Positions 1,597 to 59,363 of a stretch of 64,000 bases of DNA are shown here, in pieces. The position numbers and the translations under genes were made by a program. The DNA lies in the NCBI GenBank assembly GCA_020845705.1, contig JADLFH010000076.1:32277-96276 (forward strand), given 5' to 3'. The notes under the pieces were generated by a model. That model was not told where the DNA came from. It worked only from the letters and a program-made list of their open reading frames with translations, and ran no database searches. Source of the stretch: Microthrixaceae bacterium. GTDB lineage: Bacteria > Actinomycetota > Acidimicrobiia > Acidimicrobiales > Microtrichaceae. Within the stretch, counting starts at the first letter, position 1, and the number at the start of each line of letters is the position of its first letter.

Positions 1597-4500
1597 GTGA
1601 CCCACGTAGAGCATGAAGACGCGCCCTCCGGGGCGATGGCGCCACCTGGCGCGCCCGACCCGTTCGGGAAGGGCCTCTGGGAGCGCGTCGCACGCGCCAC
1701 ACCCCAGGTCACGGTGCTGGTGGACCACGAGCTGGTGGTCCGGTTCTGTTCGGATTCGGTCCGTGAATTGGTCGGTCTCGAAGCCGAGGATCTCACAGAC
1801 GTCTCCCTCGCCCGCGTCGTCCACACCGAGGACTGGGATCGTCTCGTCCGGGCGATCCACAACCTGCAACAGGGTGTCGAGTCGGTCCACTTCGAATGTC
1901 GGATCCTGTTGGGCGACGCCACGTACCACGAGATCGACATCACCATCCGCAGCTTCGAGCATCACGAGCTCACCTGGTTCGTCATGACGGGTCGCGATAT
2001 CACCGAAAGCCGAGCGAACGCCGCGGCTCTCGAACGCAAGATCCACCTCGAGGAGATGATCGAGAAGGTTCAACGACGTTTCATCCACGTCGCAGCCGAC
2101 GACATGGACGACGCGCTCGGCTGGGCCCTTCGTGAGATCGGACGCTTCCTGGGTTCGGACCGGGCCTACCTCCTTCGCTACGACCTCGACGCCCGAACCG
2201 AGTCGATGACCCACGAATGGTGCGGGGTTGGAACCGTCGCGCAGATCGACGAGTACCAAGGGATCTCCCTGAGCGAGTGGCCGTTGCTCACCGACCTGTC
2301 ATTCGCAGGTGAGACGATTGCCATCAAGGACATCTCAGCCCTCGACGGCATGTGGGCCGCGGATCGCGAAGCACTCCTCGAGGACGGACTCGTGTCGATC
2401 CTCGAGTTCCCGATCATCATCGGCGGCCATACCGTTGGAAGTCTTGGCTTCGACTGGAGGAGGGAGACGGCAAGCTGGACGACCGACGACCTGGTCGCGC
2501 TCCGGATGTTCGCGTCCACCTTCGCGCAGCTGATAGCCCGCAAGCGGGCGACGGCCGAACTGAACCGCACCGTCGAGCAACTCCGTGTCGGTTTCGAGGA
2601 ATCACCTGTTCCCATCGCACTGCTGTCGGCCGACGGCCGGATCCAGCGGGTGAACGACGAGCTGTGCAGCCTGGTGGGCTTCCCCCGCAACACGCTGGAG
2701 GGCGCCCACGCGGGAATCCTCATTGCAGCCGGTGACCGCGCGTCGGTGCTGGTATGGGCCCAGGGATGGATGAACCGTCTGGCACACGGCTTGGAAGGGG
2801 ACGGCACGCCCCGTCACCAGTGTGAGCTCGCAACCGGCCATGGCCGTCGGGTGTTCGCCGAGTTCTTCCCCCGCGCCGTGCACGACCTCGCAGGACGAAT
2901 CGTCAACTACGTGGTGAGGATCGACGACATCACATCGGTTCTTGCAGCGAAGGCCGCTCTCGACGAGAGCGAGACGCGCTTCGCGACCTTGGTGAGCAAC
3001 CTCCCGTTCCCTGTCATTCGCATGAGCCCACAGGGCCAGACGGTCTTCGCGAATGTCGCCGCGGCGCGGCTTCTCTCCCTGCGCGAGGGCGACCAGGCTC
3101 GCTTCGATCCCGCGGCACAAGCATCCCTCGACGCCGCTCGAATCACAGCACTGGCCACCGGCGAGCCGCAGACCACCTCTCATGAGCTCCGGACATCCAA
3201 CGGGGTGAGGTACTTCATGAGCCGCTTCGTGCCTGAGCGCGGCGACGACGGCACCACCAGCTCGCTTCTGTTGTTCTCGATCGATCTGACCGAGCGGCGA
3301 CGCCATGAGGCGGAGCTGGCTCACCGCGCAACCCACGATCATCTGACCGATCTACCGAACAGGGCGGCTTTCCTGACACGCCTGGAGATCGCCCTCGATC
3401 AGCTCAACGACGCGTCCTCGATGCCCGCCGTGCTGTTCCTGGACCTCGATCGCTTCAAGGTCGTAAACGACTCGTTGGGTCACCGCGTCGGTGACGACCT
3501 GTTGATCGCGTTGAGCCGCCGCCTCGTCGCCGTGCTAGGACCCGATGATGTCCTAGCCCGCCTCGGCGGCGACGAGTTCGCTGTCCTGCTCACCTCCCCC
3601 TCAGACGAGGACGGGATCCATCGACTCACCGAGGAGATCCAAGCGGCGCTGGCCGAGCCCGTCATCCTGGAGCATCGATCGCTGTCGGTCGCCTGCTCCA
3701 TCGGGGTCGCGATAGCGCGGGACAGGTCGGTGACGGCAGCCGAGATGATGCAGTGGGCCGATGCTGCGATGTACCGGGCAAAGGAGTCTGGTCGCAATCG
3801 TGTCTCGATCTTCGACGACGACCTCGCTGCGGCGGTGCGTGACCGCCTCGAGCTCGACCAACGGCTCCGCCACGCGGTGGAACGACATGAGTTCGAGGTG
3901 CACTTCCAACCAGAGGTCGACCTGGAATCGGGCGAGGTACTCGGAGCCGAGGCGCTGTTGCGTTGGCGTAGCCCCGACGGCCTCGTGAGCGCGGCTTCCT
4001 TCATCGGTCTGGCCGAGGACAACGGGCTCATCATCCCCATCGGCGCCTGGGTGCTCGAACAGGCGTGCCGCCAGGCCGCCGACTGGACCAGACGCTTCCC
4101 CCACCAGCCCATCACGATGCGGGTGAACCTCTCGGCCAGACAGCTCGACGACCACCAACTCGTCGATCAGGTGTGCGAGATCCTCGATCGCAGCGGACTT
4201 GATCCCTCCAGCCTCTGTCTCGAGATAACCGAGACGGCGCTGATGGCCGATGCCGAAGCGAGCCGCTCCATCCTGGAAGCGCTGGACCGCCTCGGAGTGT
4301 CACTCGCCGTCGACGACTTCGGCACCGGGTATTCGTCACTCAGCTATCTCAAGCAGTTCCCCGTGGATGTCCTGAAGATCGATCGCTCCTTCGTGGAGGG
4401 CCTGCCGGGCGACGACGAGAACCTCGCGATCGTGGCCACGATCATCCAGCTCGCGCAGTCGCTGGGCATGGACGTGACCGCCGAGGGCATCGAGAAGGCC

Positions 4501-4616: not shown

Positions 4617-5762
4617 TCAGCGCGAATCGGCCACGGGCGCCGGCGCCCCCTTCAACCAACGTCGGCCGAAGAGGAAGATCACCGGCAGGGTGAACAGCAA
4701 GGGCCCGACGAAGGAGACCGGCCGAAACAGCCACCATCGCAGATCCGGTTGCCGTTTCGAGTAGAGCCCCACGCTCCGACCCAGCCAGAAGGCGATGGCG
4801 AGGCCGGTCGAGTGGAAGAGGAACAGCGGCATCGAGAACCGGTTGATCAGCCGATTCATCGCCGACCACCGCTCTCTCGTCTCGAGCCGGTCCAGAACCC
4901 GGTCACGGATCAGAGCCGCGATCCCCGCCTGGAAGAACACGAGGGCGACGATGCACATGGTGGGCGGCGCCATGTTGGAGAACTTGTCGCCCGGCACGCC
5001 GACCATCGAGCCGGGGTACCGATCCGAGTACACGAGTGCGGCCAGCCCGAAGAGGCCGCCCAGGGCCAGGGACCAAGCCACCCTTCTGTGAGCATTGACG
5101 ATCCGCTCGTAGAAGAAGCCGAGCTGATGTGCCGCGCCCCACACCAACACCATGTTGAGCATCGCGAAGTTGTTCCAGTCGTGGCGGAAACGGGTGACGT
5201 CGACCAGCCAGGCGAGCCCGATCAGAACCACCAGCACGACCACGTCGAAGCGGTCGTGGAGCCACTCGAAGATGGGGAACAGAGCGATGATCACCAGATA
5301 CGCCGCGATGAACCACAACGGGCTGATGACCAGCTTCACCGCGTTGCCGATCCACGCAGAGTCGTAGCGGATCGAGACCAAGACGCCGAGACCGATCCAG
5401 GTGCCCGCGAGCGCGAGCGACGGCGCTGCCAGTTGCCTCACCCGACTCCAGACGAAGCTGCCGATCGTGGCGCCATGCGCCTCCTTCGCTCGCCAGGCCA
5501 CGAGGTTCGAAAAGCCACCCACGAAGAAGAACAGTGGCATCACCTGCAACAACCACGTCATGGTCCACAGCCCCTCGGTGAAACCGATCGGACTCGTGGC
5601 ATGAGGCCCGTCGGGGCGCCAGCGGATCAGGGTGAAGCACCAATGCCAGGCGACGACCACCAACAGGCTGAAGGCCCGCACGAAATCGATGAAGGTGTCC
5701 CTGCCGACCGAAGGTTTCGCAGTGGGCTCGGTGAGCACCGCCGCGTCCGGGGCATGGTCCAT
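4617..5762 (-). CDS. acyltransferase family 3 (OafA/YrhL-like) integral membrane protein
   Basis: 'FIDFVRAFSLLVVVAWHW' N-terminal motif followed by many hydrophobic segments. Start set at ATG 5762 (MDHAPD...). The ORF is open to 5972, but that extension looks non-coding. Confidence 0.8.
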   Translation of the reverse strand: MDHAPDAAVLTEPTAKPSVGRDTFIDFVRAFSLLVVVAWHWCFTLIRWRPDGPHATSPIGFTEGLWTMTWLLQVMPLFFFVGGFSNLVAWRAKEAHGATIGSFVWSRVRQLAAPSLALAGTWIGLGVLVSIRYDSAWIGNAVKLVISPLWFIAAYLVIIALFPIFEWLHDRFDVVVLVVLIGLAWLVDVTRFRHDWNNFAMLNMVLVWGAAHQLGFFYERIVNAHRRVAWSLALGGLFGLAALVYSDRYPGSMVGVPGDKFSNMAPPTMCIVALVFFQAGIAALIRDRVLDRLETRERWSAMNRLINRFSMPLFLFHSTGLAIAFWLGRSVGLYSKRQPDLRWWLFRPVSFVGPLLFTLPVIFLFGRRWLKGAPAPVADSR

Positions 5763-8067: not shown

Positions 8068-8107
8068 GCCACCCTCCCCCGGAGATGGGGGTTCGAAACT
8101 CCGGCGA

Positions 8108-9019
8108 TCAGGACTCGCGGGCCATGAAGGCGATGACGACCGCGGCGAGTTCCGCGCCCCGGTCCTCCTGGATGAAGTGGCCGGCACCCTCGATAGTCAC
8201 GTGGGCCTGGCCGCCGGCACCGGGGATCTCGGCTCGCAACACACGATCCGCTCCAGCGGTGATGGGATCGGAGTCGCCGAACGCGCAGAGGAACGGGCGG
8301 TTGAAGCGTCGGAGCACCTCCCATGCCCCACGGTTGTCGTCGCTCGCGGGATCGTCCGGGGTGGCCGGAACCAGGGTCGGGAACTGACGCGCCCCCTCTT
8401 TGTAGGCCTCGTCGGGGAACGGAGCGTCGTATGCAGCCATCACCTCCGGTGTCAGATCAGTGGTGCAGCCGCTGTTCACTATGAATCCGGTGGGGAACGT
8501 CTCGACGTTCTGGGAGAAGTCACGCCAGGCCCGGAAGGCGTCGCCCGGGTCTCGGTCACCGGTCGGCAGGAAGGTGTTCGCCGCCACGACCCCTACGAAG
8601 CGCTCCGGCTCCTCCGCCACGAGCCGCAGCCCGATCAGCCCGCCCCAGTCCTGACACACCAGCGTGATGCCGTCCAGATCCAGAGCACCGAAAAGCGCCG
8701 CGCCCATCCACTCCACATGTAGGGCGTAGGTGTAGTCACCTCGCATCGAGGGCTTGTCGGATCGACCGAAGCCGACCAGATCCGGGGCGATCACCCGGTG
8801 ACCCGCCGCGACCAGCGGCGGGATCATGTGGCGGTACAGGTAGCACCACGACGGCTCGCCGTGGAGGCACAACACAACGGCGCCGTCGCTGGGTCCTTCG
8901 TCCAGGTAGTGAACTCGAAGGGTTCCACCGTCACCGTCGTCGATCTCCACGTAATGCGGGGCGAAGTCGAAGCCGGGCAGGTTCGCGAAACGCTCGTCGG
9001 GTGTGCGCAGATGCTGCAT
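8108..9019 (-). CDS. haloalkane dehalogenase (HLD-I, DhlA/DmbB-like alpha/beta hydrolase)
   Basis: 'FANLPGFDFAPHYV...LHGEPSWCYLYRHMIPPL...APDLVGFGRSDKP...VCQDWGG' closely follows the DhlA-type N-terminus and nucleophile-Asp motif as I recall them. Confidence 0.8.
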   Translation of the reverse strand: MQHLRTPDERFANLPGFDFAPHYVEIDDGDGGTLRVHYLDEGPSDGAVVLCLHGEPSWCYLYRHMIPPLVAAGHRVIAPDLVGFGRSDKPSMRGDYTYALHVEWMGAALFGALDLDGITLVCQDWGGLIGLRLVAEEPERFVGVVAANTFLPTGDRDPGDAFRAWRDFSQNVETFPTGFIVNSGCTTDLTPEVMAAYDAPFPDEAYKEGARQFPTLVPATPDDPASDDNRGAWEVLRRFNRPFLCAFGDSDPITAGADRVLRAEIPGAGGQAHVTIEGAGHFIQEDRGAELAAVVIAFMARES

Positions 9020-9060
9020 CGGGTTCCCTTCAGTTGGGGCTCGTGAGACTTGCAGGGGAG

Positions 9061-11199
9061 TCAGAGCCTACGTATAGACACGCGGGTCCAACCGTTGGGC
9101 CCCACCCCGACGACCGATTCCCACGCGCCGCTCGAGTCATCCACTCGAGCGCCCTCCGGCGCGACACCCCATCCCGAGACCACCACCTCGCTGTGCGCAA
9201 CGCCCAGCACCAGGAACGAGACCTCGTCACCGCACTCGGTGATCGCGCCCACTCGACGACATCCTGCCGAGGCGAACTTCGACACGTCACCGAAGACCGC
9301 ACAGGAACCATCCAACAACAGGGGCGCCACCACCCACAGGTCGAGGGGGCCATCGGCAGGATCAAGGGGGAAGGTGTCGCCCCGATCCACCAAGCCCACG
9401 AGCACTCCGTCGAGGTCGCGCCGTGCGAGATGCGCCCCGACCGGACCGTCCAGATCGTCGAGGCCTACATCGAGGCGAGCAGATGCTTCGGGCACCGCGC
9501 AGCCCACCACGTAGTGCCACCGGCCGGCGGGATGCTCACTCCAGCACTCGGCTGCCAACGGAACGCTCGAGCCCATCGGCTCGGCGAAGAACGACCTTGC
9601 GAGCGCGGCCAGCGCAAGATCGGGTTGGACGAGGATCCCGTCCTCGCGGCAGGTTCGAGCGACCAGATCGCGATCGATCTCCCCGATCGGATCGCCAATG
9701 CCCACAGGACCGCACGACAACGCCGCGAGACACACCTCGACATCGGCGTAAGGGTCGTCGGTGGTTACGAATACATCCTTGGAGGCGGCCAGGCCGAGAG
9801 CGCGCGCCAGTGCGTTCACGTGCAGGAACCAACCCCAGTTGCCCTGGCGGTCCGCCAGGTAGCGGTAGTCCATGGAAGTGCGGATCGACGACACCTGGGC
9901 CATGGTCGCGGCGTGGAGGAAGTCAGCCGGGGACGCCATGCACAACTGGAGGGTGAGGCCCCGGCGTGCCGCGGAGCGGTCCATGCCGTCAAGCCAGGCA
10001 CCGGCGCGGCCGGGCCTGTGGCGCAGGCCCCCGACGGTGAGGAAGATCTCCACCAGCCAGTCCTGCTCATAGGTGCATGCCCCCCAACTCGCCGCCTGCT
10101 CCATCCACGCATCCAACAGGTCCGGAGCGGCCGGATGTGCGTGGCCGGACTCTCCGTCGCGGAAGGCGGCGAAGCCACCATCGTCGCCGCTGGCTGACGA
10201 TGCGGCGAAGTAGGAAGACGAAGCCGCCAGGTGGCGGCTGTGCAACACGAGCGGAAGCCCCCCGGTTGCAGCGTGCAGAGGCGCGAACCCGCCCGGGAGC
10301 GCGTCGTCGCGCGGCTCCCAGCGCAGAGCGCCCGACGGCGGCACGACCGCGGCACCCTCGCCGAGGCCACGCGACTCCACATGGGGGTACCACCAGGAGT
10401 CGAGCTGCACGGCGTGCATCGGCAGCCCTTCGGCGGCGAGTGCGTCGACAACCGCGCCGAGTGTCTCCGCGTAGGTTCGCTCTGGGGCCGGCCGGTAGTA
10501 GTAGGTGGCGCCGTTGTCGGTCCAGTAGCTGAGGCCACGAACCGCCGCGTCCGTCGCGCGAGCACCGTGGAGGGCACCGGCTCCTCCTCGCACCATCTCG
10601 CCGTAGCGGGCCATGGCCTGCCGGGCGTCGTCGGCGACGATGAGCACGAATTCCGACACGAGCTCATCCACGGTCTCGAGGTCGCCGTGCCATCCCGCCC
10701 GGATGTCGTCGCGCGGGAACTCCTCCGATGGCACCACGATCACCGACTCGTGCGGATGGTTCAGCGGACCCAACAGCAGGGCGGGCCGGCCTGCGCCTCC
10801 CCACAACAGCGGCATCGCGGCGGGCGGGCGAAGCGGCCACGGGGCCAGGCCCAGTCCATCCGCGCGGGCGGCCGACGGGAGAGCGAACTCCATGTACTGG
10901 TATCCGAAGCTGACCACCCCGAGGGTCTCCAGCTCCGCGACCACGGGGCGGATCGACCAGGCCACCTGCGGGTCGGCGAAGCCGGCGCCACGAACCCCAC
11001 TGAGTCCACTGCCGGCGAGTGAAAGGCTGACGGCAGAGCCGTCGATCACTCCCGCAGCCAGCTCGACCTCGCCGGCGACACCGTCGGCCACCGCGGGGAT
11101 CACTTCCAGCCAGGGATCACCGTCGACCAGCAGTCGAGCATGTTCGGACGGGTCGAACGCGAGGGAATGCGACACCTCAAGGACGGTATTCGGAAGCAC
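9061..11199 (-). CDS. large hypothetical protein, possibly a TIM-barrel glycoside hydrolase-like enzyme
   Basis: 712-aa ORF with coding-like composition. The central 'YWTDNGATYYY...HAVQLDSWWYPH...YEQDW...GPVGIGD' resembles a glycosidase barrel flanked by beta-sandwich-like ends. The family is not recognised. Confidence 0.7.
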   Translation of the reverse strand: MLPNTVLEVSHSLAFDPSEHARLLVDGDPWLEVIPAVADGVAGEVELAAGVIDGSAVSLSLAGSGLSGVRGAGFADPQVAWSIRPVVAELETLGVVSFGYQYMEFALPSAARADGLGLAPWPLRPPAAMPLLWGGAGRPALLLGPLNHPHESVIVVPSEEFPRDDIRAGWHGDLETVDELVSEFVLIVADDARQAMARYGEMVRGGAGALHGARATDAAVRGLSYWTDNGATYYYRPAPERTYAETLGAVVDALAAEGLPMHAVQLDSWWYPHVESRGLGEGAAVVPPSGALRWEPRDDALPGGFAPLHAATGGLPLVLHSRHLAASSSYFAASSASGDDGGFAAFRDGESGHAHPAAPDLLDAWMEQAASWGACTYEQDWLVEIFLTVGGLRHRPGRAGAWLDGMDRSAARRGLTLQLCMASPADFLHAATMAQVSSIRTSMDYRYLADRQGNWGWFLHVNALARALGLAASKDVFVTTDDPYADVEVCLAALSCGPVGIGDPIGEIDRDLVARTCREDGILVQPDLALAALARSFFAEPMGSSVPLAAECWSEHPAGRWHYVVGCAVPEASARLDVGLDDLDGPVGAHLARRDLDGVLVGLVDRGDTFPLDPADGPLDLWVVAPLLLDGSCAVFGDVSKFASAGCRRVGAITECGDEVSFLVLGVAHSEVVVSGWGVAPEGARVDDSSGAWESVVGVGPNGWTRVSIRRL

Positions 11200-11261: not shown

Positions 11262-11873
11262 ATGACCTCCGACAGCGCTCTCGCCTCGCTGCGGTCCGCG
11301 GCGGCGATGGTCGCCGCTTTACCCTCCGTGCGTGTCCGAGTCAGAGTCGATGGCCGCACTCTCCTGGAGGCAGTACGCCCCCCGTTCCCTCCCCTTGCAC
11401 CACACCCCGTGGTCCCTTGGTGTCGTTTCCGCAACGCCGTGATCGACGCCCACAAGGAGCGAGCGGCGGGACGACACGTATCGCTGTTGGGAGTCGACTC
11501 AGCCTCCGAGACGAGGATCGCCTACGGCGTCCGACCCGGAGAGATCTGCCGCCCCGGAGGACTGGTACGAACGACCATCGGCAGCCGATGGATCCACGCG
11601 GTGGCGGTTGCGCTCCCGGCGAGCGCTCTGGGGAGCGCAACCGACGACTGGGTCCCCGCCGACGACCTGCTGGTACGGGTGGCCGCAGTCGAGGACCCGG
11701 CACTCGGGGTGAGCATCCTGCACGTGACGACCGACGCCGGCGACCACCGGCACTCCTCCGCAGCCTTCGACGGACTCATCACCGCTCTCGGCCGCGTTGC
11801 CGCCGACGAGATCGAGGCTCACCTCGCTCCGAGCGCGGCGTGGCAGGTGACGCCCGACCCGAAGCTCAGCTGA
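11262..11873 (+). CDS. hypothetical protein
   Basis: ATG 11262 lies in ORF 11256..11873. GC3-biased codons and balanced composition support it, whereas the competing frames are R/S/P-rich shadows. No recognisable motif. Confidence 0.5.
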
Positions 11874-12654: not shown

Positions 12655-13848
12655 ATGACCGATCGGCGTAACACCACAGCCCCGCCACCTTCGCCATTCG
12701 AGCCGTACCGCCTCGGGCCACTCACCCTCCGCAACCGCATCGTCAAGGCCGCCCCCTTCGAAGGTGTCATGCCCAAGGGTGCGGTCACCGACGCGCTCAT
12801 CGACTTCCACCGACGTGTCGCCGCTGGCGGCACTGCCCTCACGACCGTCGCCTACTGCGCGGTGTCCGAGGGCGGTCGTGTGCATCGCAACACGATGGTG
12901 ATGCGTCCCGAGATCGCGCCCGACCTGCGTCGCCTCACCGACGCCGTGCATGACGAGGGAGCGCTCGCCTCCGCGCAGATCGGCCACGCCGGGCTGGTGG
13001 CCAACACCCGCTCCAACCGCCGGCCGACGTTGGCGCCATCGACCCGGTGGAGCAACCCGGCGATGGCCGTGGTGCGGGGCGCGTCGCAGTCCCAGCTCGA
13101 CGAGGTGATCGAGGAGTTCCGTCGGGCAACCCAGGTGGCGCTCGACGGCGGCTTCGACGCCGTCGAGGTACACCTCGGCCACAACTACCTGCCCAGCTCG
13201 TTCCTCTCCCCCAACCTGAACAAGCGGCGCGACCACTACGGCGGCAGCATCGCCAACCGCTCCCGGTTCCCACGCCAGATCATCGACGCCGTGCGCTCGG
13301 TTGCGGGAGACCGGGTAGCTGTCACGGCGAAGCTCAACATGGCCGACGGCGTCGAGCGGGGCCTGTGGTTGGACGAGAGCCTCCAGGTCGCGCAGATGCT
13401 GGAGGCCGACGGCCAGCTCGACGCCATCCAGCTCACCGGCGGATCTTCGTTGCTCAACGGCATGTACTTCTTCCGCGGCGACGTACCGATGGCCGAGTTC
13501 ATCGCCACCCAACCCAAGGTGGTCGGCCTCGGTCTGCGGGTCATCGGCCCGAAGCTCTTCCCCGAACTGCCCTTCGAGGAGGCGTTCTTCCTTCCCTTCG
13601 CTCGCCAGTTCCGCAACGAGCTGCACATGCCGTTGATCCTCCTCGGTGGCATCAACCGCCTCGACACCATCGAGGGGGCGTTGGATGAGGGCTTCGAGCT
13701 GGTCGCCATGGCGCGCGCGCTGTTGCGCGAACCGGATCTGCCCCTGCGGATGCAGAAGGACGCGAAGCACGGCGTCGGGCTCTGCGTGCACTGCAACAAG
13801 TGCCTGCCGACGATCTACACCGGCACCCGTTGCGTGCTGGCCGGCTGA
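12655..13848 (+). CDS. NADH:flavin oxidoreductase (Old Yellow Enzyme family)
   Basis: 'FEPYRLGPLTLRNRIVKAAPFEG', 'AQIGHAG' and 'VEVHLGHNYLPSSFLSP' are OYE motifs. Start taken at ATG 12655 (MTDRRN...). Confidence 0.85.
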   Translation: MTDRRNTTAPPPSPFEPYRLGPLTLRNRIVKAAPFEGVMPKGAVTDALIDFHRRVAAGGTALTTVAYCAVSEGGRVHRNTMVMRPEIAPDLRRLTDAVHDEGALASAQIGHAGLVANTRSNRRPTLAPSTRWSNPAMAVVRGASQSQLDEVIEEFRRATQVALDGGFDAVEVHLGHNYLPSSFLSPNLNKRRDHYGGSIANRSRFPRQIIDAVRSVAGDRVAVTAKLNMADGVERGLWLDESLQVAQMLEADGQLDAIQLTGGSSLLNGMYFFRGDVPMAEFIATQPKVVGLGLRVIGPKLFPELPFEEAFFLPFARQFRNELHMPLILLGGINRLDTIEGALDEGFELVAMARALLREPDLPLRMQKDAKHGVGLCVHCNKCLPTIYTGTRCVLAG

Positions 13849-28229: not shown

Positions 28230-28383
28230 CGGCGTGGCGCCAGGCGCTGCCTGCACACAGCAGCTCCGGAACGAGCCCACCGAGCACGACGAACTCGGGG
28301 CGACCGCCGTAGTGGTGCACCACGCGGACAAGCGCCGCCTCAGACGCGGCGCGAGCGGCGCGGGATCGCTCGGGTTCAGGCAT
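28230..28383 (-). pseudogene. truncated nucleotidyltransferase-like (AbiEii-type toxin?) N-terminal fragment
   Basis: 'MPEPERSRAARAASEAALVRVVHHYGGRPEFVVLGGLVPELLCAGSAWRHAGTID' then degenerates into shadow-like sequence that overlaps the relaxase remnant. Its ATG overlaps the upstream stop (ATGCCTGA). The end coordinate is approximate. Confidence 0.3.
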
Positions 28384-29353
28384 CGCCGACAACCTCCCAG
28401 AGGTGCTCCGCAGCCTCCTCGCCACGGATGCCCGAGGCGCGCAGGTCGGCGTAGATGCGGGGCCATGGCGCGACGCGGAGGTCACCAGCCGGGGCCGACA
28501 GCCGCTTGGTCACTGACGTGGGGAACGGACGCAAGACCAGGCGACCTCCCTCGATCGGCTTGAGGCCAGCGCGGTCCGCGACCTCGTCGAGCGTGGCCGG
28601 GGTCGGCGCATCGACGAAGGCGTCCAGGCCGCTCACCTCGGTTAGGTAGGGAGCGAGGACTGCGGCGGCAGCCGGGCCGGTGGCTGCCCATGCCAGGCCG
28701 TCGGCATCCCACCGCCGGCCGAGCTTCACCAGCTCGTCGGCGAGATCGCCGAGGACCCCAACACGGAGCATGAGGGGCTTGGTCGCAGCGAGAGCTGCAT
28801 CGGCGTACGCCGTCAACAGAGCCCGTCGGTCGACGAGCTCCCGTGCCGAGGCCCTCCCACGTGGCGCGTCGGCCTCGAGCAGCCCGAACGTCGTCAACGT
28901 CGCCAGCGCCTTCGTCGCAGAGCCGGCCGACAGACCGGTCGTTCGCTCGACGTTGGCCACCGTGGGGCGCGTGCCGAGCAGCAACGCCTCGGCCGTTCCG
29001 ATGACCGATGGCGTCCAGCGTGGGACCACCTCGGACTTCGTCTCAGGCCGACCGCTCCGGGAGACGACAAGGCCGGGCAGGGAGATCTCTGCTCCACCCG
29101 CCTCGTCCACCCACCCCAGCCCGGCGTCGGCGATCGCGACACGGGCCCCGGGCGACATGCGCCGCGCGACGACGACGTCGACGTCGCCCTTCGGGCGATC
29201 CAACACGACGCGGACGTCGCCGAGCCAACCCTCGCCTGCCCATGCGGCTCGGACGCGAGCGCCGGCCACGTCGACCAGCGCGATGCCCTCGCCCGAACGG
29301 GCGAGGCGCACAGGCGTGCCCGAAGGGAGGACGGCACGGATCGCCGTCTCCAT
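28376..29353 (-). CDS. AbiEi-like type IV antitoxin/transcriptional regulator (wHTH)
   Basis: Central wHTH 'TVANVERTTGLSAGSATKALATLTTFGLLEA' and a C-terminal 'RVAPWPRIYADLRASGIRGEEAAEHLWEV' that resembles AbiEi C-terminal domains. Start at ATG 29353 (METAIR...). Confidence 0.55.
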   Translation of the reverse strand: METAIRAVLPSGTPVRLARSGEGIALVDVAGARVRAAWAGEGWLGDVRVVLDRPKGDVDVVVARRMSPGARVAIADAGLGWVDEAGGAEISLPGLVVSRSGRPETKSEVVPRWTPSVIGTAEALLLGTRPTVANVERTTGLSAGSATKALATLTTFGLLEADAPRGRASARELVDRRALLTAYADAALAATKPLMLRVGVLGDLADELVKLGRRWDADGLAWAATGPAAAAVLAPYLTEVSGLDAFVDAPTPATLDEVADRAGLKPIEGGRLVLRPFPTSVTKRLSAPAGDLRVAPWPRIYADLRASGIRGEEAAEHLWEVVGDA

Positions 29354-29410
29354 CCTGCCGGAGCCGGCCTCCTGGTCGGTCGTGGTCACGACGACACAAT
29401 ACCTCAGCCA

Positions 29411-29436
29411 AGTGAAATACTCACTGTACAAGTGAG
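29411..29436. promoter_or_regulatory. operator-like array AGTGA-n5-TCACT-n5-AGTGA (10-bp phasing)
   Basis: Read directly: AGTGAaatacTCACTgtacaAGTGAG. It sits in the visibly AT-richer 152-bp divergent region between the AbiEi-like gene and gene F. Confidence 0.4.
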
Positions 29437-29505
29437 GATTTCGAATAGCTGATCCCTCCTCTCGCCCGACCATCCACCACCTGCGCCGGCTGGCAAGGCA
29501 CGCTG

Positions 29506-30549
29506 GTGAACATGGGTGGAGTGCCGCCGACGTTGCGTACTCGAACTGGTGAGGTCGCGTGGTACCTGTCCGCGTCGCTGGGTGCGGCTGAGGCCCACGA
29601 GTACGCGCATGCAAGCGGCGGTGTCGTGCTCCGCGGTGAGAAGGGGATTGAAACCGCCAACACCCTTCGACGCAACGGATGGACGGGACGCATCTGGCTC
29701 GACCCCGCAACGTACGAGCGACCTGGCAAGCAGTCGGATCTGACGCTCTTTGGCAACCGGTGGGCCGTTGCTCAGGATGATCTCGGCGTCGCCGAGCGGA
29801 TCAGTCCTGGATCCTTCGTGCCCGCCGGCGATCAGAGAGCACTACGGCGCGGACTTGCCAACGAGGTCGAATGGCTCGAGCGGGCGGGAGGAGGCCGGGC
29901 TTCGCTCGCGCTGCACGCGGGCTGGCTAGTCGACGGCACGCAACAGGTCATCGACGCACTCCGGCACCTCGACTCCCCGGTGGCCCTGGCTCTCGCCGAT
30001 CCGACCGACCCGCTGGGCCGCAGCGGTGCAGTCGCCGGCCTGGTCAGGATCGTCAGTGAGGTCGAGGACCTGATGCTGCTGCGCGGCGATCTCGGTGCGC
30101 TCGGAGCAGTGGCCCACGGTGCTCGGCAGGGAGCGATCGGTACGTCGACGATCGTCCGTCACGCCCTCCCGCCTGGGAAGCACGGGGGTGGGGTGCCTGG
30201 CGACAAGACCCCGTCGGTCTTCTGGCCGGAACTTCTTGGCTTCCGCTTGGGTTCCTTCATCGAGCAACTTCCGAGGGAGGCCGTACCCGTCTGCGACCTG
30301 GCGTGTTGCCTGGGGGCGCGCTTGAGCCGGTTCAACGACGAGCGGATGGAGGCTGAGGCGCGAGTCCACAACAGACTCGCGATCCAGGCACTCATCGACG
30401 CCGTGCTCCAACTGGCCGACTCGGAGCGGCCGGGTCGCTTCAGGTCGATGTGCCAGCAGGCAATCGTGGAGACGGAAACGCTCAGCGTGCGCGCTCGTCG
30501 GCAGATCGTCACCTCGCGGCAACTTGTTTCCTGGGCAGAGCTCAGCTGA
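29506..30549 (+). CDS. hypothetical protein (island gene F), family not recognised
   Basis: 347-aa ORF with GTG 29506 or ATG 29512 as start. Balanced, coding-like composition and no motif I can name. Its stop overlaps the convergent gene E stop in the palindrome TCAGCTGA. Confidence 0.65.
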   Translation: MNMGGVPPTLRTRTGEVAWYLSASLGAAEAHEYAHASGGVVLRGEKGIETANTLRRNGWTGRIWLDPATYERPGKQSDLTLFGNRWAVAQDDLGVAERISPGSFVPAGDQRALRRGLANEVEWLERAGGGRASLALHAGWLVDGTQQVIDALRHLDSPVALALADPTDPLGRSGAVAGLVRIVSEVEDLMLLRGDLGALGAVAHGARQGAIGTSTIVRHALPPGKHGGGVPGDKTPSVFWPELLGFRLGSFIEQLPREAVPVCDLACCLGARLSRFNDERMEAEARVHNRLAIQALIDAVLQLADSERPGRFRSMCQQAIVETETLSVRARRQIVTSRQLVSWAELS

Positions 30550-31132
30550 CTCGGACGAGCTCCGCGTAGAGCATCTCGGCGAGGTGCCATTGATAGGCGC
30601 CAATGTCGGGCCGCACGGGCTGCGCATGGTTGAGCACACGGATCTCGGCGCCTTCGGCCAAGCCCACGGCGACTCCGAAGAGTTGTGCATTCAGCAGCGT
30701 TGGGTCGGTGGGCGCGGGCGACGTTCCTGTGACTACCGCAGCTGTGGCGCACACTGACGAGAGCTGACCGATTGCGCCCAGGATTCGGGAGAGGCTGCCA
30801 GCAGTCGCAGCTGCAGCGTGGATGGTCAGCGGAGGGCGTAGGTCTCGCCGGACCGTTCTGGCGGCGTGACCATCGACGCCCACACTCAGACGGTCGACCA
30901 CCCAATCGGGAAGTGCGTTCGGCGGGAACTCGATGCCTGCCGGAAGCTCCCACAGGGCGTTGATCGTCCGGCGGTCAGTGATCGCACCCACACCGGCATC
31001 GTCTCGACGACGCACCTCCTCGGGGTCGACGTCGACGAAGAAGAGCACCGGCACCTGAGCCAGCGGGTGCTCGATTGCGATCGAGCCGGCGAAGCCGAAT
31101 GCGTCCCGAACGACCTCAGCGCTCGGGCTCAC
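30542..31132 (-). CDS. hypothetical protein (island gene E), co-translated with the XRE regulator
   Basis: 196-aa ORF. Its GTG start overlaps the XRE stop (GTGA, 31129..31132). Family not recognised. Confidence 0.6.
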   Translation of the reverse strand: MSPSAEVVRDAFGFAGSIAIEHPLAQVPVLFFVDVDPEEVRRRDDAGVGAITDRRTINALWELPAGIEFPPNALPDWVVDRLSVGVDGHAARTVRRDLRPPLTIHAAAATAGSLSRILGAIGQLSSVCATAAVVTGTSPAPTDPTLLNAQLFGVAVGLAEGAEIRVLNHAQPVRPDIGAYQWHLAEMLYAELVRVS

Positions 31133-31377
31133 GGCCGCGACCCCGCGTCGAGCTGCTCGAGCGAGACCCCTAGTGCCCGGGCGAGATCGGCGACGTTGAA
31201 GAAGCTCGGGCCAATGCTGCGACCACCGAGGACCGCTCGCACCGTCTCGTAGTGCACGCCCGACTCAGTTGATAGGTCGTGAACACTCCAACCGCGCTCG
31301 TCTCTGGCCGAGATCAGGTCGGCAACCAGACGTTCGGCCCGAACCCGCTCGCTCTCTTGAATCGCTCTCCGACCCAT
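31129..31377 (-). CDS. XRE-family helix-turn-helix transcriptional regulator
   Basis: 'ARDERGWSVHDLSTESGVHYETVRAVLGG...FFNVADLARALGVSLEQL' is a typical Cro/C1-type HTH. 82 aa. Confidence 0.85.
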   Translation of the reverse strand: MGRRAIQESERVRAERLVADLISARDERGWSVHDLSTESGVHYETVRAVLGGRSIGPSFFNVADLARALGVSLEQLDAGSRP

Positions 31378-31406
31378 TCGTGTAACAATACCGGATTGTT
31401 ACACGA
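31378..31406. promoter_or_regulatory. perfect 12-5-12 palindrome TCGTGTAACAAT-accgg-ATTGTTACACGA abutting the XRE start codon
   Basis: Read directly. On the coding strand it ends at position -1 of the ATG and contains TATTGT at -13..-8. This suggests a leaderless transcript with an operator overlapping the -10 element. Confidence 0.6.
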
Positions 31407-31514
31407 CATCGACGGAGCCGGAGGCCTCGGTGCCGCGCCCGGCCAACCGACGGAAGCGCGCAAGCCGCCCGCGCAGACTTCGACCTGCGGCCCCCGGGAA
31501 CGCCGGGTCCCTCT

Positions 31515-31534
31515 CCCGCCGCTGCTGCGGCGGG
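31515..31534 (-). terminator. GC hairpin (8-bp stem, 4-nt loop) about 65 nt downstream of the gene D stop
   Basis: CCCGCCGC-tgct-GCGGCGGG read directly. There is no U-tract. Confidence 0.25.
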
Positions 31535-31598
31535 CTGCCGTCAACTACTGGCGTCTCGTGCGCAGCACGCAACGGCCAGCAAGGCCGGATCGACGTGA

Positions 31599-32717
31599 TC
31601 AGTTCGATGCTGGGCCGGACTCAACGGATCGGAAACCACGCACCAAGACGCTGGTTCCGCCGGTCGAGTCGGGAGGACAGAGACAGATCCGCGATGTGCT
31701 GCAAGACGCTCGGTCCTGGAAGCTGACGAAGCCTGGGCCCTCGGGTGCCACCGCGATCGGCTCGCCGATCCAGTCCGCGACCGGTGCAGAGCTCAGGAAG
31801 AACGGGGTGAACTCGCCGCCCCGATCCCAGGCGCCGATCTGAGGCTCGACGTGCCCGGTCGGATCAGCTGCGTGGTAGGGGTAGCCAAGAGCGATGTCGG
31901 CGGTGACCTGGTCGGCTGTCTCTGCGAATCCTTGGAACGACGCGTGGCCTCGGAACGTGCAGCCGACGAGGAGGGTGCCCGCCTCCGTCGTTAGCCGGCC
32001 GCAGATGACCCTGAAATCGCCGCCGGGCCTCCCTCGGTCCATCCAACGCTTCGCTCGATCCCAGTCCCGCCGGTCCGTGGAGTCCCACTTGGGCTCCTCC
32101 GGATGAAGGCGGGTCGCGACGCCTGCCTGGTGCCGCAACGGAAAGCCCGTCCACTCGCCACCGGCCGCTCGGTGGATCGCCTTGGGGCACACCTCCCAGA
32201 AGAAGCGAGCAGCATCGAGGAACGTGTCGAGTACGTCGCTCCCCAGGAGATGAGCGTCGTAGTGGACACGCAACCCCTGCGTGTTGGGACGAAGGGATCG
32301 ATGTACCCGACGCGGGACATCGGCCCAGAGCGCGGACGTGCGAAAGCCGAGGGCCATGTTGTTGCCGACAACTCGCGCAGGGTCCGGCACCACCGGGTGA
32401 ATCAGGTGCTGGCCGACGTTGCGCACATACCGGAGCCCCTCAATCGTCTCGGCACCCGGATCGCCACCAGCGAGTCGCCCGGCGAAGACCTGCTGGTATC
32501 GGGCCTTCTGACCGAAGTCGTGCTGCAGCACCTCGTGCACCTTCTGGATGAACGCGACCGTCGCTCGCACCGGAGTGGTGAACTGCTCGGCGTCCTCGAC
32601 GAATCCGGTGGTGCCCAGGTAGTAGTCCGTGATCGACACCTGCAGGTCCCGCATAGCCGAACGGAGCGGCTCGACCTCGTTGGCTCTCGGCCGAACAGTT
32701 CGTGGCTGCATCGTCAC
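31599..32717 (-). CDS. hypothetical protein (island gene D) with HEPN-like R-N-x3-H motif
   Basis: 372-aa ORF. 'GLRYVRNVGQHLIH' (residues 99-104, DNA 32406..32423) fits the Rx4-6H HEPN signature. The rest is unrecognised. Confidence 0.7.
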   Translation of the reverse strand: MTMQPRTVRPRANEVEPLRSAMRDLQVSITDYYLGTTGFVEDAEQFTTPVRATVAFIQKVHEVLQHDFGQKARYQQVFAGRLAGGDPGAETIEGLRYVRNVGQHLIHPVVPDPARVVGNNMALGFRTSALWADVPRRVHRSLRPNTQGLRVHYDAHLLGSDVLDTFLDAARFFWEVCPKAIHRAAGGEWTGFPLRHQAGVATRLHPEEPKWDSTDRRDWDRAKRWMDRGRPGGDFRVICGRLTTEAGTLLVGCTFRGHASFQGFAETADQVTADIALGYPYHAADPTGHVEPQIGAWDRGGEFTPFFLSSAPVADWIGEPIAVAPEGPGFVSFQDRASCSTSRICLCPPDSTGGTSVLVRGFRSVESGPASN

Positions 32718-32818
32718 GGTCGAAGAATCGTCAGCGCGGACTGGTGGCTGAAGTTCTGCTCAGGTGATTGCGGCCGAACCACACGTCAGGGGTCATGGCA
32801 ATCGAACCTTCGTCCAGG

Positions 32819-33535
32819 CTACGGCCCGCTGGCGGTCGGCGCTTCGTCCTCGGAGGGGTCGTCGTAGCCGACGAAGACCGCCGGGAGCCGCTCTTCCAGA
32901 TCGACGAGCGCGACGTGCGCACCCTCATCGGCCGTGAAGTCGCAGATCCTGCGATCGAGGGAGCCGAAGCGCTCCTCGAACACCGCTCGCTCGCGGGGCG
33001 AACGGTCGAGCCCCCACGAGGCCTTCGAGGTGGAGGTTCGCAGGAACCGGATCGGGCGGTCACCGAGCACGTACAGCTCGGCCCGACGCCCCGAAGCATT
33101 CGCGGCGAGGTGCACGAGGTCCTTGAACACCTGGCGCTTCCGCATGGCGTCGGTACCGCCCCATCGGGAGAGCTTGAACTCAGCGACCCGCCGCTCGGTC
33201 TCGGCGTCGAACGGACGAGACGGGTCGTTGCCCGCGGCGAGTGATGGACGAACCAGCTGCTCATCGGGTTCGAGCAGATGCGGGAGGGCGAGCGCGATGG
33301 CGGTGGCATGGATCAGGTCGTTCATCCGCCCCAGGCGAGCGCGCACGACGAGCGCTGACTGCAGGAGACGACGATCGACCTTGGCGGCATCCAGGAGGGA
33401 CGGGATGTCGCCGACACGAACACCTTCGAGCTCGTGCTCGAGGCGTGCGATCCGCGTCGTGAGCTCCTCGTCTCCGAGGAACCCGACCAAGACGTCGAGA
33501 CTCTCGGGAAGGTTGACGCCCTCAGGGTCCGACAT
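32819..33535 (-). CDS. hypothetical protein (island gene C) with PD-(D/E)xK-like motif
   Basis: 238-aa ORF. 'PFDAETERRVAEFKLSRW' gives D110...E119-x-K121 (DNA 33173..33208). Family not recognised. Confidence 0.7.
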   Translation of the reverse strand: MSDPEGVNLPESLDVLVGFLGDEELTTRIARLEHELEGVRVGDIPSLLDAAKVDRRLLQSALVVRARLGRMNDLIHATAIALALPHLLEPDEQLVRPSLAAGNDPSRPFDAETERRVAEFKLSRWGGTDAMRKRQVFKDLVHLAANASGRRAELYVLGDRPIRFLRTSTSKASWGLDRSPRERAVFEERFGSLDRRICDFTADEGAHVALVDLEERLPAVFVGYDDPSEDEAPTASGP

Positions 33536-33547
33536 CTCGGCCTGCGG

Positions 33548-33796
33548 CTACGCAGACGGCAGAAGGTCGCGGTGCTCCTCGACGGTGCCGTCGAGCATTT
33601 GCAGGGTGATGCCTCGCTCGATGTCGACCGAGATGATCTGGGCCACCGCGGGCTCGGCATCCTCGCAGCCGACCACCGCGTACTGACCGGCGACCGGGAC
33701 GAAGCCCTCGCGGACATCGCTGAGGCGCGTCCACAGTCGACCGTCGTTGGTCATGTCCATGAAGTCGACGGCGATGTCGTAGTTGGTCGTGTCCAT
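33548..33796 (-). CDS. small acidic hypothetical protein (island gene B)
   Basis: ATG 33796 (MDTTNYDIAVDF...), 82 aa, GC3-biased. It starts 11 bp after the gene A stop and ends 12 bp before the gene C start. Confidence 0.55.
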   Translation of the reverse strand: MDTTNYDIAVDFMDMTNDGRLWTRLSDVREGFVPVAGQYAVVGCEDAEPAVAQIISVDIERGITLQMLDGTVEEHRDLLPSA

Positions 33797-33807
33797 GGCT
33801 CCTCCGC

Positions 33808-34269
33808 TCACCAAGGCTCCCGCGGGTGTTCGAGCCCAGGGTTGGGAATGGGCTCGTCGAAGCATCGAAGGAGCCGACCCAGCGTCACCTCCGACAGGTC
33901 GGAGAGAGCGATCGTGTAGTGGGGCGCGTCGAAGGTGGCGACGACCGGGAACCCTGCAGCCCGCAATCGGCCAAAGGTCGACAGCCGGACCTGGCGGTAC
34001 CTCCGCAGCCTCGGACTCGTCCGGCACGCCTCCGGGACCGAGAGATCCATCGCCCCTTCGACCGAGATCCCGAGGAGCCCGTAGCCCTCCAGGCAGCGAT
34101 TGGCTGCGTCCTCGACGCTCTGCTCGCTCAGCACGCCGGCCCGGATCACGACGACGGCGTCGTCCGGAGGCTGTTCGTCCCGCGTGGGCAAGCGGTGTTC
34201 CACGGGCACGAACCTACCCCGAGGGTGAGACAGCGATCCGTTCTCCGCCCAACCTCCGCCCAAAACCAT
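33808..34269 (-). CDS. hypothetical protein (island gene A)
   Basis: ORF 33808..34392(-) trimmed to ATG 34269, because the longer form would run into the tRNA gene. A later GTG start is possible. Family not recognised. Confidence 0.55.
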   Translation of the reverse strand: MVLGGGWAENGSLSHPRGRFVPVEHRLPTRDEQPPDDAVVVIRAGVLSEQSVEDAANRCLEGYGLLGISVEGAMDLSVPEACRTSPRLRRYRQVRLSTFGRLRAAGFPVVATFDAPHYTIALSDLSEVTLGRLLRCFDEPIPNPGLEHPREPW

Positions 34270-34317
34270 CCGAGAATCGAGGGATCTGGCGGTCTCTGGC
34301 GGACATACCCACAAGCG

Positions 34318-34345
34318 GCTGACCAGGCTATTCACCCTGGTCAGC
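34318..34345 (-). terminator. hairpin (10-bp perfect stem, 8-nt loop) 15 nt downstream of tRNA-Arg
   Basis: GCTGACCAGG-ctattcac-CCTGGTCAGC read directly. Only a weak T-rich tail follows on the tRNA strand. Confidence 0.45.
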
Positions 34346-34360
34346 CGCCGATTCGCGGGG

Positions 34361-34433
34361 CGCCCCCGGCAGGATTCGAACCTGCGACGCACGGTTTAGG
34401 AAACCGACGCTCTATCCCCTGAGCTACGAGGGC
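34361..34433 (-). tRNA. tRNA-Arg (anticodon CCT)
   Basis: The reverse complement folds as a cloverleaf: GCCCTCG/TA/GCTC-AGGGGATA-GAGC/G/TCGGT-TTCCTAA-ACCGT/GCGTC/GCAGG-TTCGAAT-CCTGC/CGGGGGC/G. The acceptor stem is 7 bp with one G-U, the T-loop is canonical, and anticodon CCT is flanked by T33 and A37. 73 nt, with no encoded CCA. Confidence 0.9.
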
Positions 34434-34523
34434 ATGTGGGCACAGTTGTGCGGATCTCTCCACTCTCGACGACCACGCTTCAGATGGTAGGCGGCCCATG
34501 ACCGATACCGACACGGCGCAAGG

Positions 34524-49733: not shown

Positions 49734-49852
49734 GCATCCCTTCGATAGCCAAGCGGTGCCCGGCCCCGACGGCCGGGCACCGGCGCGTCCGCATTCGATG
49801 GGTGCGATGCAACACGACACGCCCCCGGTGTCGGTCCTGCCAGGATGGTGCC

Positions 49853-59349: not shown

Positions 59350-59363
59350 GTACGATCCTCGGC

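Follow-up and report, generated by a model that had tools for sequence, protein, structure and literature searches.

A conserved, mobile three-gene module of an XRE regulator, a small partner protein, and a tRNA-guanine transglycosylase-like barrel in Microthrixaceae, probably a toxin–antitoxin-like or anti-phage system

Results and Discussion

A gene trio inherited as a unit

In a 64,000-nt stretch of DNA from a Microthrixaceae bacterium (the window; assembly GCA_020845705.1, contig JADLFH010000076.1, positions 32,277 to 96,276 of the forward strand), a small XRE-family helix-turn-helix (HTH) regulator gene (xre) is coupled to a gene for a protein of unnamed family (E), which converges on and overlaps a gene for a larger protein (F). 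The trio is a so far undescribed, conserved, and mobile module, which probably represents a toxin–antitoxin (TA)-like or anti-phage system. Comparison of related loci shows that F is co-inherited with the xre-E operon, that E and F always converge, and that the regulator gene is translationally coupled to E (Table 1).

Of 18 distinct related loci, 17 have both F and E in convergent orientation, with F identities falling as low as ~27% (L001, L003/L033, L032, L004, L005/L006, L028/L037, L030, L034, L035, L036, L039, L040, L041, L043, L045, and the plasmid records L046 and L047). For the two plasmid records, the facing open reading frames (ORFs; 204 and 207 aa) were assigned by position, size, and overlap, and are not detected by the E-family hidden Markov model (HMM). 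The sole exception to the pairing is L029 (8001-10427), in which the gene opposite the E-family gene is a 584-aa ORF that is unrelated to F and matches nothing in Pfam or PADLOC. The 3′ ends of E and F overlap by 4-53 bp in all loci but one (L035, with a 3-bp gap), and pairwise distances between loci for F track those for E (Mantel r 0.91, p 2e-4, 14 loci), with E evolving somewhat faster than F. DNA homology between the window and its nearest relative (L001, an Acidimicrobiaceae metagenome-assembled genome (MAG); 76.5% identity) is confined to positions 29467 to 31395; the homologous segment starts 45 bp ahead of the F ATG and ends within the palindrome abutting xre, and the flanks differ. 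The sequence-only reading of this DNA had described F simply as a gene facing E; on the comparisons given here, F is an obligate partner of E and not a bystander.

A small xre gene lies upstream of E, with a 4-bp coupling overlap, in eight loci, the homologues in the seven other loci encoding proteins of 81-89 aa. The translational coupling of regulator and E proposed by the sequence-only reading therefore extends to 8/8 XRE loci and, in addition, to a plasmid record from Tsukamurella tyrosinosolvens (L047; NZ_LR134456.1, 3650-5713), in which the gene opposite a 385-aa F-like gene encodes 207 aa and is coupled by 4 bp to an AbrB/MazE/SpoVT-type regulator gene in the XRE slot. A survey of other genomes for conservation of the xre-E pair, which that reading had suggested, found the pair kept in seven other loci, with F as its partner. 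F and E occur without a small xre in L030 and L046.

Two side observations concern the plasmid records. L047 adjoins a Tn7-like TniQ gene and a mer operon, and RefSeq annotates all of its genes as 'hypothetical' except the regulator. In L046 (Arthrobacter agilis plasmid pAAG24-80), an unannotated 204-aa ORF at 4789-5403 has a 4-bp overlap with the facing F-like gene; its C-terminus (IWRRFYEEQLYDWAL) resembles the E-family C-terminal motif, and the PLSDB table lists no gene there.

The coordinates previously proposed for the xre, E, and F ORFs agree with the sequence. For F, the ORF 29506..30549 exists as described, but the 347-aa product read from its GTG is less likely than one from the ATG at 29512, because homologues open with MGGV, MGEV, or MAxx. 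The 8-bp overlap of E and F, which had been noted as palindromic, is also present, but its palindromy is a by-product of coding and no signal in itself, because both genes end in Ser-stop (AGC TGA on each strand).

Table 1. Features of the xre-E/F module. Coordinates are window positions; F residue numbers in the text and table are counted from the GTG at 29506.
Feature	Position	Strand	Description
DNA motif CCATCCACC	29470..29478	+	End 33 nt before F ATG
CACGCT, CAnnnT -10-like hexamer	29499..29504	+	7 nt before F ATG
Gene F	29512..30549	+	345 aa from ATG 29512; ORF opens at GTG 29506
F zinc-motif region	30292..30369	+	C263, C267, C268 ... H288-N289
E/F tail-to-tail overlap TCAGCTGA	30542..30549	.	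8 bp
Gene E	30542..31132	-	196-aa alpha/beta protein, unnamed family, convergent partner of F
GTGA, overlap of XRE TGA stop and E GTG start	31129..31132	-	
XRE-family HTH regulator	31129..31377	-	82 aa
Palindrome TCGTGTAACAAT-accgg-ATTGTTACACGA	31378..31406	.	Perfect 12-5-12, touches XRE ATG
TATTGT, predicted -10 hexamer	31385..31390	-	7 nt before XRE ATG, within right arm of palindrome

Genomic setting and distribution

In the window, the module is part of an island linked to a tRNA-Arg (34358..34434), with an AbiEi-like gene adjoining. In L001 the same tRNA-Arg bears an island with the trio and an AbiEi-like gene inside it; this island retains an intact tyrosine integrase, along with two 41-nt direct att copies of the 3′ part of the tRNA, and possibly represents tandem islands (element coordinates 1829-1903, 2042-3196, 13031-13071, and 14768-14808 in L001; window counterpart 34359-34433). 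No att repeat of the tRNA-Arg 3′ end and no integrase were found in the window, and an Rfam search of the window returned tRNA only.

At the other loci, the neighbouring genes include those of mobile elements (IS21 and ISL3 elements, tyrosine recombinases, Tn7-like TniQ, and a plasmid relaxase), of defence systems (HsdM of restriction-modification (R-M), SIR2 with HerA, a TIR protein, Mrr, and a Bil system), and of TA systems (HipBA, MazE/PemK, and zeta toxin). From its layout alone, the module had been likened to the control module of a toxin, defence, or mobile-element function. This view is upheld by its position as tRNA-Arg island cargo and by the defence, TA, or mobile genes found at every related locus; no metabolic neighbourhood, which would have spoken for a common metabolic role, was seen at the related loci inspected.

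The close family is rare, comprising seven loci in 6 of 185,579 species genomes, all of them MAGs labelled Actinomycetota or 'bacterium', and no relatives were found in phage records. One Actinomycetota MAG carries two copies of the trio (L032, and L033, which equals L003), with identical XRE and identical DNA upstream of xre; two IS21-type transposase/IstB pairs beside one of the copies suggest recent transposition. In L003, divergent from xre-E, the region 8105-10851 encodes an XRE-Peptidase_M78 fusion (401 aa), a 204-aa unknown protein, and a DUF1883-TIR protein, and may be a separate defence cassette.

The adjoining gene in the window, which the sequence-only reading took for a TA remnant, is weakly confirmed as AbiEi-like (AbiEi_2, E 0.0017, under the Pfam cut-off), and also matches Pfam HTH_IclR at 6.3e-5. 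The AT-rich gap separating this gene and F holds an inverted repeat (29404-29452; 22-nt arms, 77% complementary, 5-nt spacer, core CTCACT-gtaca-AGTGAG), which probably belongs to the AbiEi-like gene because it lies outside the DNA homology to L001.

A predicted operator over a predicted leaderless promoter

XRE is matched by the Pfam families HTH_3 (PF01381; 1.5e-7, 31.7 bits vs. a gathering cut-off of 23) and HTH_31 (PF13560; 1.2e-6, 29.1 bits vs. a cut-off of 27), and its match to HipB-type (Y4mF) antitoxins is sub-threshold (E 8e-4, 19 bits vs. a 72-bit cut-off). The perfect 12-5-12 palindrome reported against the XRE ATG is confirmed by the sequence. Perfect palindromes with arms of >=12 nt and a spacer of up to 20 number five in the window, vs. 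0.2 expected from Markov-1 shuffles. The other four lie at 59328-59355, 49754-49782, 34315-34348, and 11605-11643, of which that at 34315-34348 is 10 nt from the tRNA-Arg 3′ end.

An AT-rich inverted repeat with arms of 10-13 nt is found directly upstream of the XRE ATG in 8/8 related loci, at a distance of 0-3 nt in seven and of 15 nt in L004; the repeat in L001 is imperfect (9/12 match, aligned by eye), and the arm sequences vary from locus to locus. A TAnnnT hexamer precedes the XRE ATG by 6-7 nt in 6/8 loci and by 9 nt in L001 (TATTGT in the window; TATAAT, TATAGT, TATACT, or TAGATT in other loci), and L004 has TATAAT 20 nt upstream of the ATG and TACGCT at 7 nt. In the seven loci with a spacing of 6-9 nt, a Shine-Dalgarno sequence would not fit. 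With a -10 element at such a distance, transcription would start at the A of the ATG, as is typical of leaderless genes in actinobacteria. The leaderless, autoregulated xre promoter put forward earlier for the window alone thus gains comparative backing, from the repeat in all eight loci and the hexamer in seven, as a predicted feature of the family.

These observations support the palindrome as the predicted XRE operator, overlying the -10 element and the transcription start; because the predicted operator would cover both, autorepression is implied. The operator half-site has no second copy in the window at <2 mismatches, and XRE therefore probably controls its own operon only; control of F by XRE was rejected, the half-site being confined to the palindrome. 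We also considered the palindrome as a terminator of the upstream 372-aa gene, which is unlikely because it lacks a U-tract and stays with the xre ATG beside differing upstream genes. A scan for consensus sigma-70 promoters detected none, including before F.

Upstream of F, a further DNA motif, (C)CATCCACC (CCATCCCCC in one locus), ends 32-35 nt before the F start in 9/9 aligned loci (window, L001, L003, L004, L006, L028, L034, L036, and L043), down to 27% protein identity. The motif is noncoding, because its reading frame differs among loci. Its window copy, CCATCCACC, marks the left limit of DNA homology to L001, and no enrichment of it was found elsewhere in the window. It is probably a promoter-proximal or protein-binding element; a specific sigma factor might use it as a promoter, or a module protein might bind it. 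An RNA hairpin between CCATCCACC and the GGTG...ATGG start region that would occlude translation was rejected, since RNAalifold predicted no structure common to the loci and covariation is absent from the alignment. As read from the alignment, 8/9 loci have an xAnnnT hexamer (mostly CAnnnT, in a block GGnCAnnnT) 6-7 nt before the F ATG, and the F transcript may also be leaderless.

Gene F: a TGT-like barrel with a predicted zinc site

According to the sequence-only reading, neither E nor F had a nameable motif. This stands for E, for which none was found, but not for F, for which a TIM barrel like that of tRNA-guanine transglycosylase (TGT) and a zinc motif were recognised. The AlphaFold2 (AF2) model of F (predicted local distance difference test score (pLDDT) 88, predicted TM-score (pTM) 0.87) has as its top Foldseek neighbour in the PDB the TGT 1y5w (E 1.6e-7, TM 0.55/0.54), followed by mouse QTRT (7b2i_C, E 4.6e-6), with generic TIM barrels appearing only from E 6e-4. 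Among viral structures (BFVD), matches were weak (best E 4e-3) and included one putative viral queuine tRNA-ribosyltransferase.

An exhaustive profile search of a public protein library yielded an F family of 648 cluster representatives at E <= 1e-3, with 29 close relatives. Across 47 diverse relatives, R193, D195, G212, R218, H219, C263, H288, and W343 are invariant, and D66, D168, and C268 nearly so. The family consensus CxCxxC...HN is the TGT zinc motif (CDLACC in F itself), and hhalign places the Cys/His motif of F onto the TGT CxCxxC/HN motif; F is thereby predicted to carry a C-terminal CxCxxC...H zinc site. By contrast with these structural and motif matches, F itself has no match in Pfam (E <= 0.1), NCBIfam, PADLOC, or PHROGs; none of the 47 relatives matches Pfam at E <= 0.01, including PF01702 and PF14350; and F profiles returned nothing significant from PDB sequences.

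TGT and DpdA share three invariant Asp residues, serving as general acid/base, base-recognition residue, and nucleophile (PMC10164549). In F, D66 was aligned with the Asp of the TGT 'LTDSGG' motif in three hhalign runs and lies at the end of a barrel strand. No Asp of F aligns with the TGT/DpdA nucleophile, the position being taken either by R218-H219 ('RHALPP' vs. 'DCVLPT' in the motif alignment) or by a gap; the nucleophile position in F may thus be R218-H219. We infer that the active site of F, a TGT-fold barrel that would bind zinc, has been remodelled, with the general acid/base Asp kept.

The genome from which the window derives encodes QueC and a canonical TGT. Among six other F-bearing genomes, QueC was found in one (E <= 1e-10) and TGT in five; because QueC is rare in these genomes, a DpdA-like dependence of F on host-made preQ0 is unlikely.

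Gene E: an unnamed family with no credible fold match

E has 13 close relatives, and 52 by profile search, all of ~190-230 aa and none with a Pfam domain or an informative name. Its AF2 model (pLDDT 83.5) has an alpha/beta fold, for which Foldseek found no credible PDB neighbour (best E 0.085, TM <0.4); E profiles found no relative with a solved structure among PDB sequences, and E has no match in Pfam, NCBIfam, PADLOC, or PHROGs. Marginal matches to YaeQ and FANCM/FAAP24 (E 0.5-1.3) give a hint of a restriction endonuclease (REase)-like fold and are not taken as evidence for one. In 20 diverse sequences, R43, A149, and W182 are invariant and W61, R96, E186, and Y189 nearly invariant; this alignment contains no nuclease, nucleotidyltransferase (NTase), or peptidase motif and no conserved D...ExK. 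With respect to sce7726 or cII-type REases, E does not match NF033832, and hhalign gave a probability of 0.07%.

Relation to known systems

The closest parallels in architecture are the P4 gop-beta-cII and PD-lambda-2 systems. PD-lambda-2 has been shown experimentally to be an abortive infection (Abi) defence, and its C component, described as 'related to a P4 phage antitoxin', is needed for defence (Vassallo et al., 2022; PMC9519451). A preprint of October 2026 (10.64898/2026.10.19.760177, section 33) unifies Beta_protein, under the name 'TIM-B', and the TGT barrel, reports that the P4-type REase is encoded convergently with an overlap, and proposes that TIM-B constitutively restrains effectors and that the convergent transcripts are antagonistic. 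Like the TIM-B systems P4 gop-beta-cII and PD-lambda-2, in which Beta_protein (PF14350) faces a convergent REase of the sce7726/cII type (10.64898/2026.10.19.760177, section 33; PMC9519451; 10.1101/2023.04.06.535777), the present module has a barrel of ~340-375 aa related to the TGT fold, a convergent ~200-aa partner gene with overlapping 3′ ends, and an association with HTH or HTH-peptidase regulators, HigB, and defence islands. This architecture occurs in the window and 16 further loci, with HTH-peptidase or ImmA genes present in the variants at L030 and L046. At L030, a HigB-like gene, together with a PD-Lambda-2_B homologue (E 1.1e-36), is immediately followed by an F-like gene, whose product matches the F profile in hhalign at E 2e-33, and by an E-like gene facing it, so that the F/E-type pair occupies the slot of PD-lambda-2C (a P4 Beta-like protein) in a PD-lambda-2-like cassette. 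The same convergent-overlap layout is seen in L038, in which a canonical HTH-M78 gene and a Beta_protein (PF14350) gene face an sce7726 gene.

The module differs from TIM-B systems in that the regulator is coupled to the small partner rather than to the barrel, and there is no separate effector gene upstream of the barrel. F has a TGT-type Cys/His zinc motif, unlike the one Beta protein examined, and E lacks the D...ExK nuclease motif seen in the sce7726 protein. The window proteins tested, from 28376 to 34392, gave no match to PD-Lambda-2 in PADLOC.

With TGT and DpdA (PF01702; Zymomonas mobilis TGT 1y5w, mouse QTRT1/QTRT2 7b2i, and S. Montevideo DpdA, PMC10164549), F shares a (beta/alpha)8 barrel, after which come a beta-hairpin and a helical subdomain with the Cys/His zinc motif. 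It differs in that no Asp aligns with the nucleophile (D280 in TGT, D256 in DpdA) and R193, D195, R218, and H219 are invariant instead; F is also not tied to preQ0 synthesis, and its neighbours include no partner genes for tRNA or DNA modification. With a TGT-like fold and zinc motif but no aligned nucleophile, F resembles the non-catalytic QTRT2, a subunit that retains both features of TGT while lacking that residue. Cap10 of type IV CBASS (cyclic oligonucleotide-based anti-phage signalling system) is a TGT-family enzyme that acts on protein-linked 7-deazaguanine (10.1101/2025.04.06.647259). It offers a precedent for a TGT-family barrel in an anti-phage system that acts on or with a partner protein rather than tRNA, but Cap10 has no zinc site, has a catalytic Asp/His pair, and depends on the QueC-like Cap9 together with a CD-NTase whose N-terminus is Gly-rich; these are absent here, and the N-terminus of E is not Gly-rich.

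In its xre-E arm, the module resembles type II TA operons (HigA, HipB) and R-M operons controlled by a C protein, having a small HTH gene first, 4-bp coupling, and what is predicted to be a palindromic operator over its own promoter with a leaderless start. The regulator domain is also swappable, as in type II TA systems (XRE vs. AbrB/MazE in L047). The differences are the third, obligate, convergently overlapping gene F, and the fact that E matches no known toxin or nuclease family.

Proposed function and alternatives

The explanation we favour, with confidence only a little above even, is that the trio is a self-contained conflict module, TA-like or anti-phage, akin to TIM-B, gop-beta-cII, and PD-lambda-2. 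An XRE dimer would bind the palindrome and repress its own leaderless xre-E transcript, so that E is kept low and buffered, much as type II antitoxins and the controller (C) proteins of R-M systems behave. E would be the effector, and F a sensor or constitutive negative regulator of E, acting either on a flipped nucleobase or on E itself and independently of host-made preQ0. No terminator-like structure was found after the stop codon of E or F, and the convergent transcripts therefore probably collide or pair; such collision would render expression of the xre-E and F arms mutually antagonistic. The toxic partner, the target of F, and phage defence are roles that we infer. A more specific version is tentative and, in our estimation, appreciably less probable: the F/E pair would found a zinc-bearing TGT-fold conflict branch that works without 7-deazaguanine, in which F flips a nucleobase of the invader or host and binds, excises, or exchanges it, or else modifies E, by way of D66, R193, D195, R218, and H219, and the terminator-less overlap would serve as a toggle, releasing E when infection or element loss disturbs F.

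Several points weigh against this interpretation. The relation of F to TGT is drawn from one AF2 model and from motifs, and profile-profile support is weak (E 0.0035, probability 9%, for the broad F alignment, A4, against 14 actinobacterial TGTs). The catalytic residues of F are assigned by reasoning from sequence and secondary structure. E as effector is a guess, since it has no recognisable catalytic motif or fold. The kinship with TIM-B is not reflected in detectable similarity of F to Beta_protein or of E to sce7726, for which one member each was tested (hhalign gave a probability of 0.1% for F against one true Beta protein, and the F-family HMM misses the L038 Beta protein). The CCATCCACC element upstream of F also stands unexplained.

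The opposite polarity, in which F is a toxic enzyme that excises or exchanges bases in tRNA, rRNA, or DNA and E is its antidote or specificity subunit, supplied from an XRE-buffered operon whose convergent transcription damps F, appears rather unlikely. It would account for the facts that only F combines an enzyme-like fold with a cluster of invariant polar residues (R193, D195, R218, and H219, with D66 and D168 nearly so), that E has no catalytic motif and, like many antitoxins, evolves faster than its partner F, and that an operon with the regulator first and the partner second looks like an antitoxin operon. However, a promoter for F on the opposite strand would mean that toxin and antidote are not co-expressed, the TGT nucleophile has no aligned Asp in F, and, by analogy, P4 Beta and PD-lambda-2C are not toxic components (PMC9519451; 10.64898/2026.10.19.760177). 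Still more doubtful is a minimal Dpd-like R-M system, in which F would insert 7-deazaguanine into host DNA in the manner of DpdA, E would restrict unmodified DNA, and XRE would act as a C protein delaying E. A small, predicted leaderless XRE-type controller with a coupled gene that converges on a modification-type enzyme does fit R-M operons under C-protein control, such as PvuII, AhdI, and Esp1396I, and F has the TGT/DpdA fold and zinc motif in a genome with QueC and canonical TGT. Against this, QueC is missing (E <= 1e-10) from five of the six other F-bearing genomes, one of which also lacks TGT; F matches neither PF01702 nor any PADLOC model, although PADLOC covers Dpd; no dpdB- or dpdC-like genes are nearby, and E has no nuclease motif; and not all of the three invariant Asp residues of TGT and DpdA (PMC10164549) can be recovered in F.

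We give very little credence to an ordinary two-gene TA system, with XRE as antitoxin, E as toxin, and F as an unrelated neighbour. The 4-bp coupling, the autoregulatory palindrome, and the small HTH protein at the head of the operon are all as such a system would have them, but the presence of F with E in 17 of 18 loci, the differing flanks, the conserved 3′ overlap, and the correlated divergence contradict it, as do L030 and L046, which have F and E minus the small XRE. Equally improbable is that F is a housekeeping or metabolic TIM-barrel enzyme, with XRE and E as local regulators and no conflict function. Most TIM barrels are metabolic, and generic barrels do follow TGT in the Foldseek list for F; yet the close family is confined to seven loci (six genomes) among 185,579 species genomes, one MAG has two copies, one of them beside IS21 genes, and the loci are always on islands or plasmids beside defence, TA, or mobile genes, never in metabolic operons.

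Significance

The TGT fold, long held to be confined to tRNA modification, is now seen to be reused in immunity, as in DpdA, Cap10, and the 'TIM-B' proposal. To these the F branch adds 648 cluster representatives that are without a Pfam, NCBIfam, PADLOC, or PHROGs model, in which the zinc site is kept and the nucleophile apparently is not, and which travel with a ~200-aa partner, independently of preQ0. The xre promoter provides a clean, comparatively supported case of a predicted leaderless, operator-embedded promoter in Acidimicrobiia, which is, to our knowledge, a class with almost no experimental genetics. The module is small (three genes, 1.9 kb) and therefore directly testable. The trio could reveal the part that the barrel component plays in defences of the gop-beta-cII and PD-lambda-2 types, and the transcriptional toggle, if true, would be a new anti-phage or addiction mechanism.

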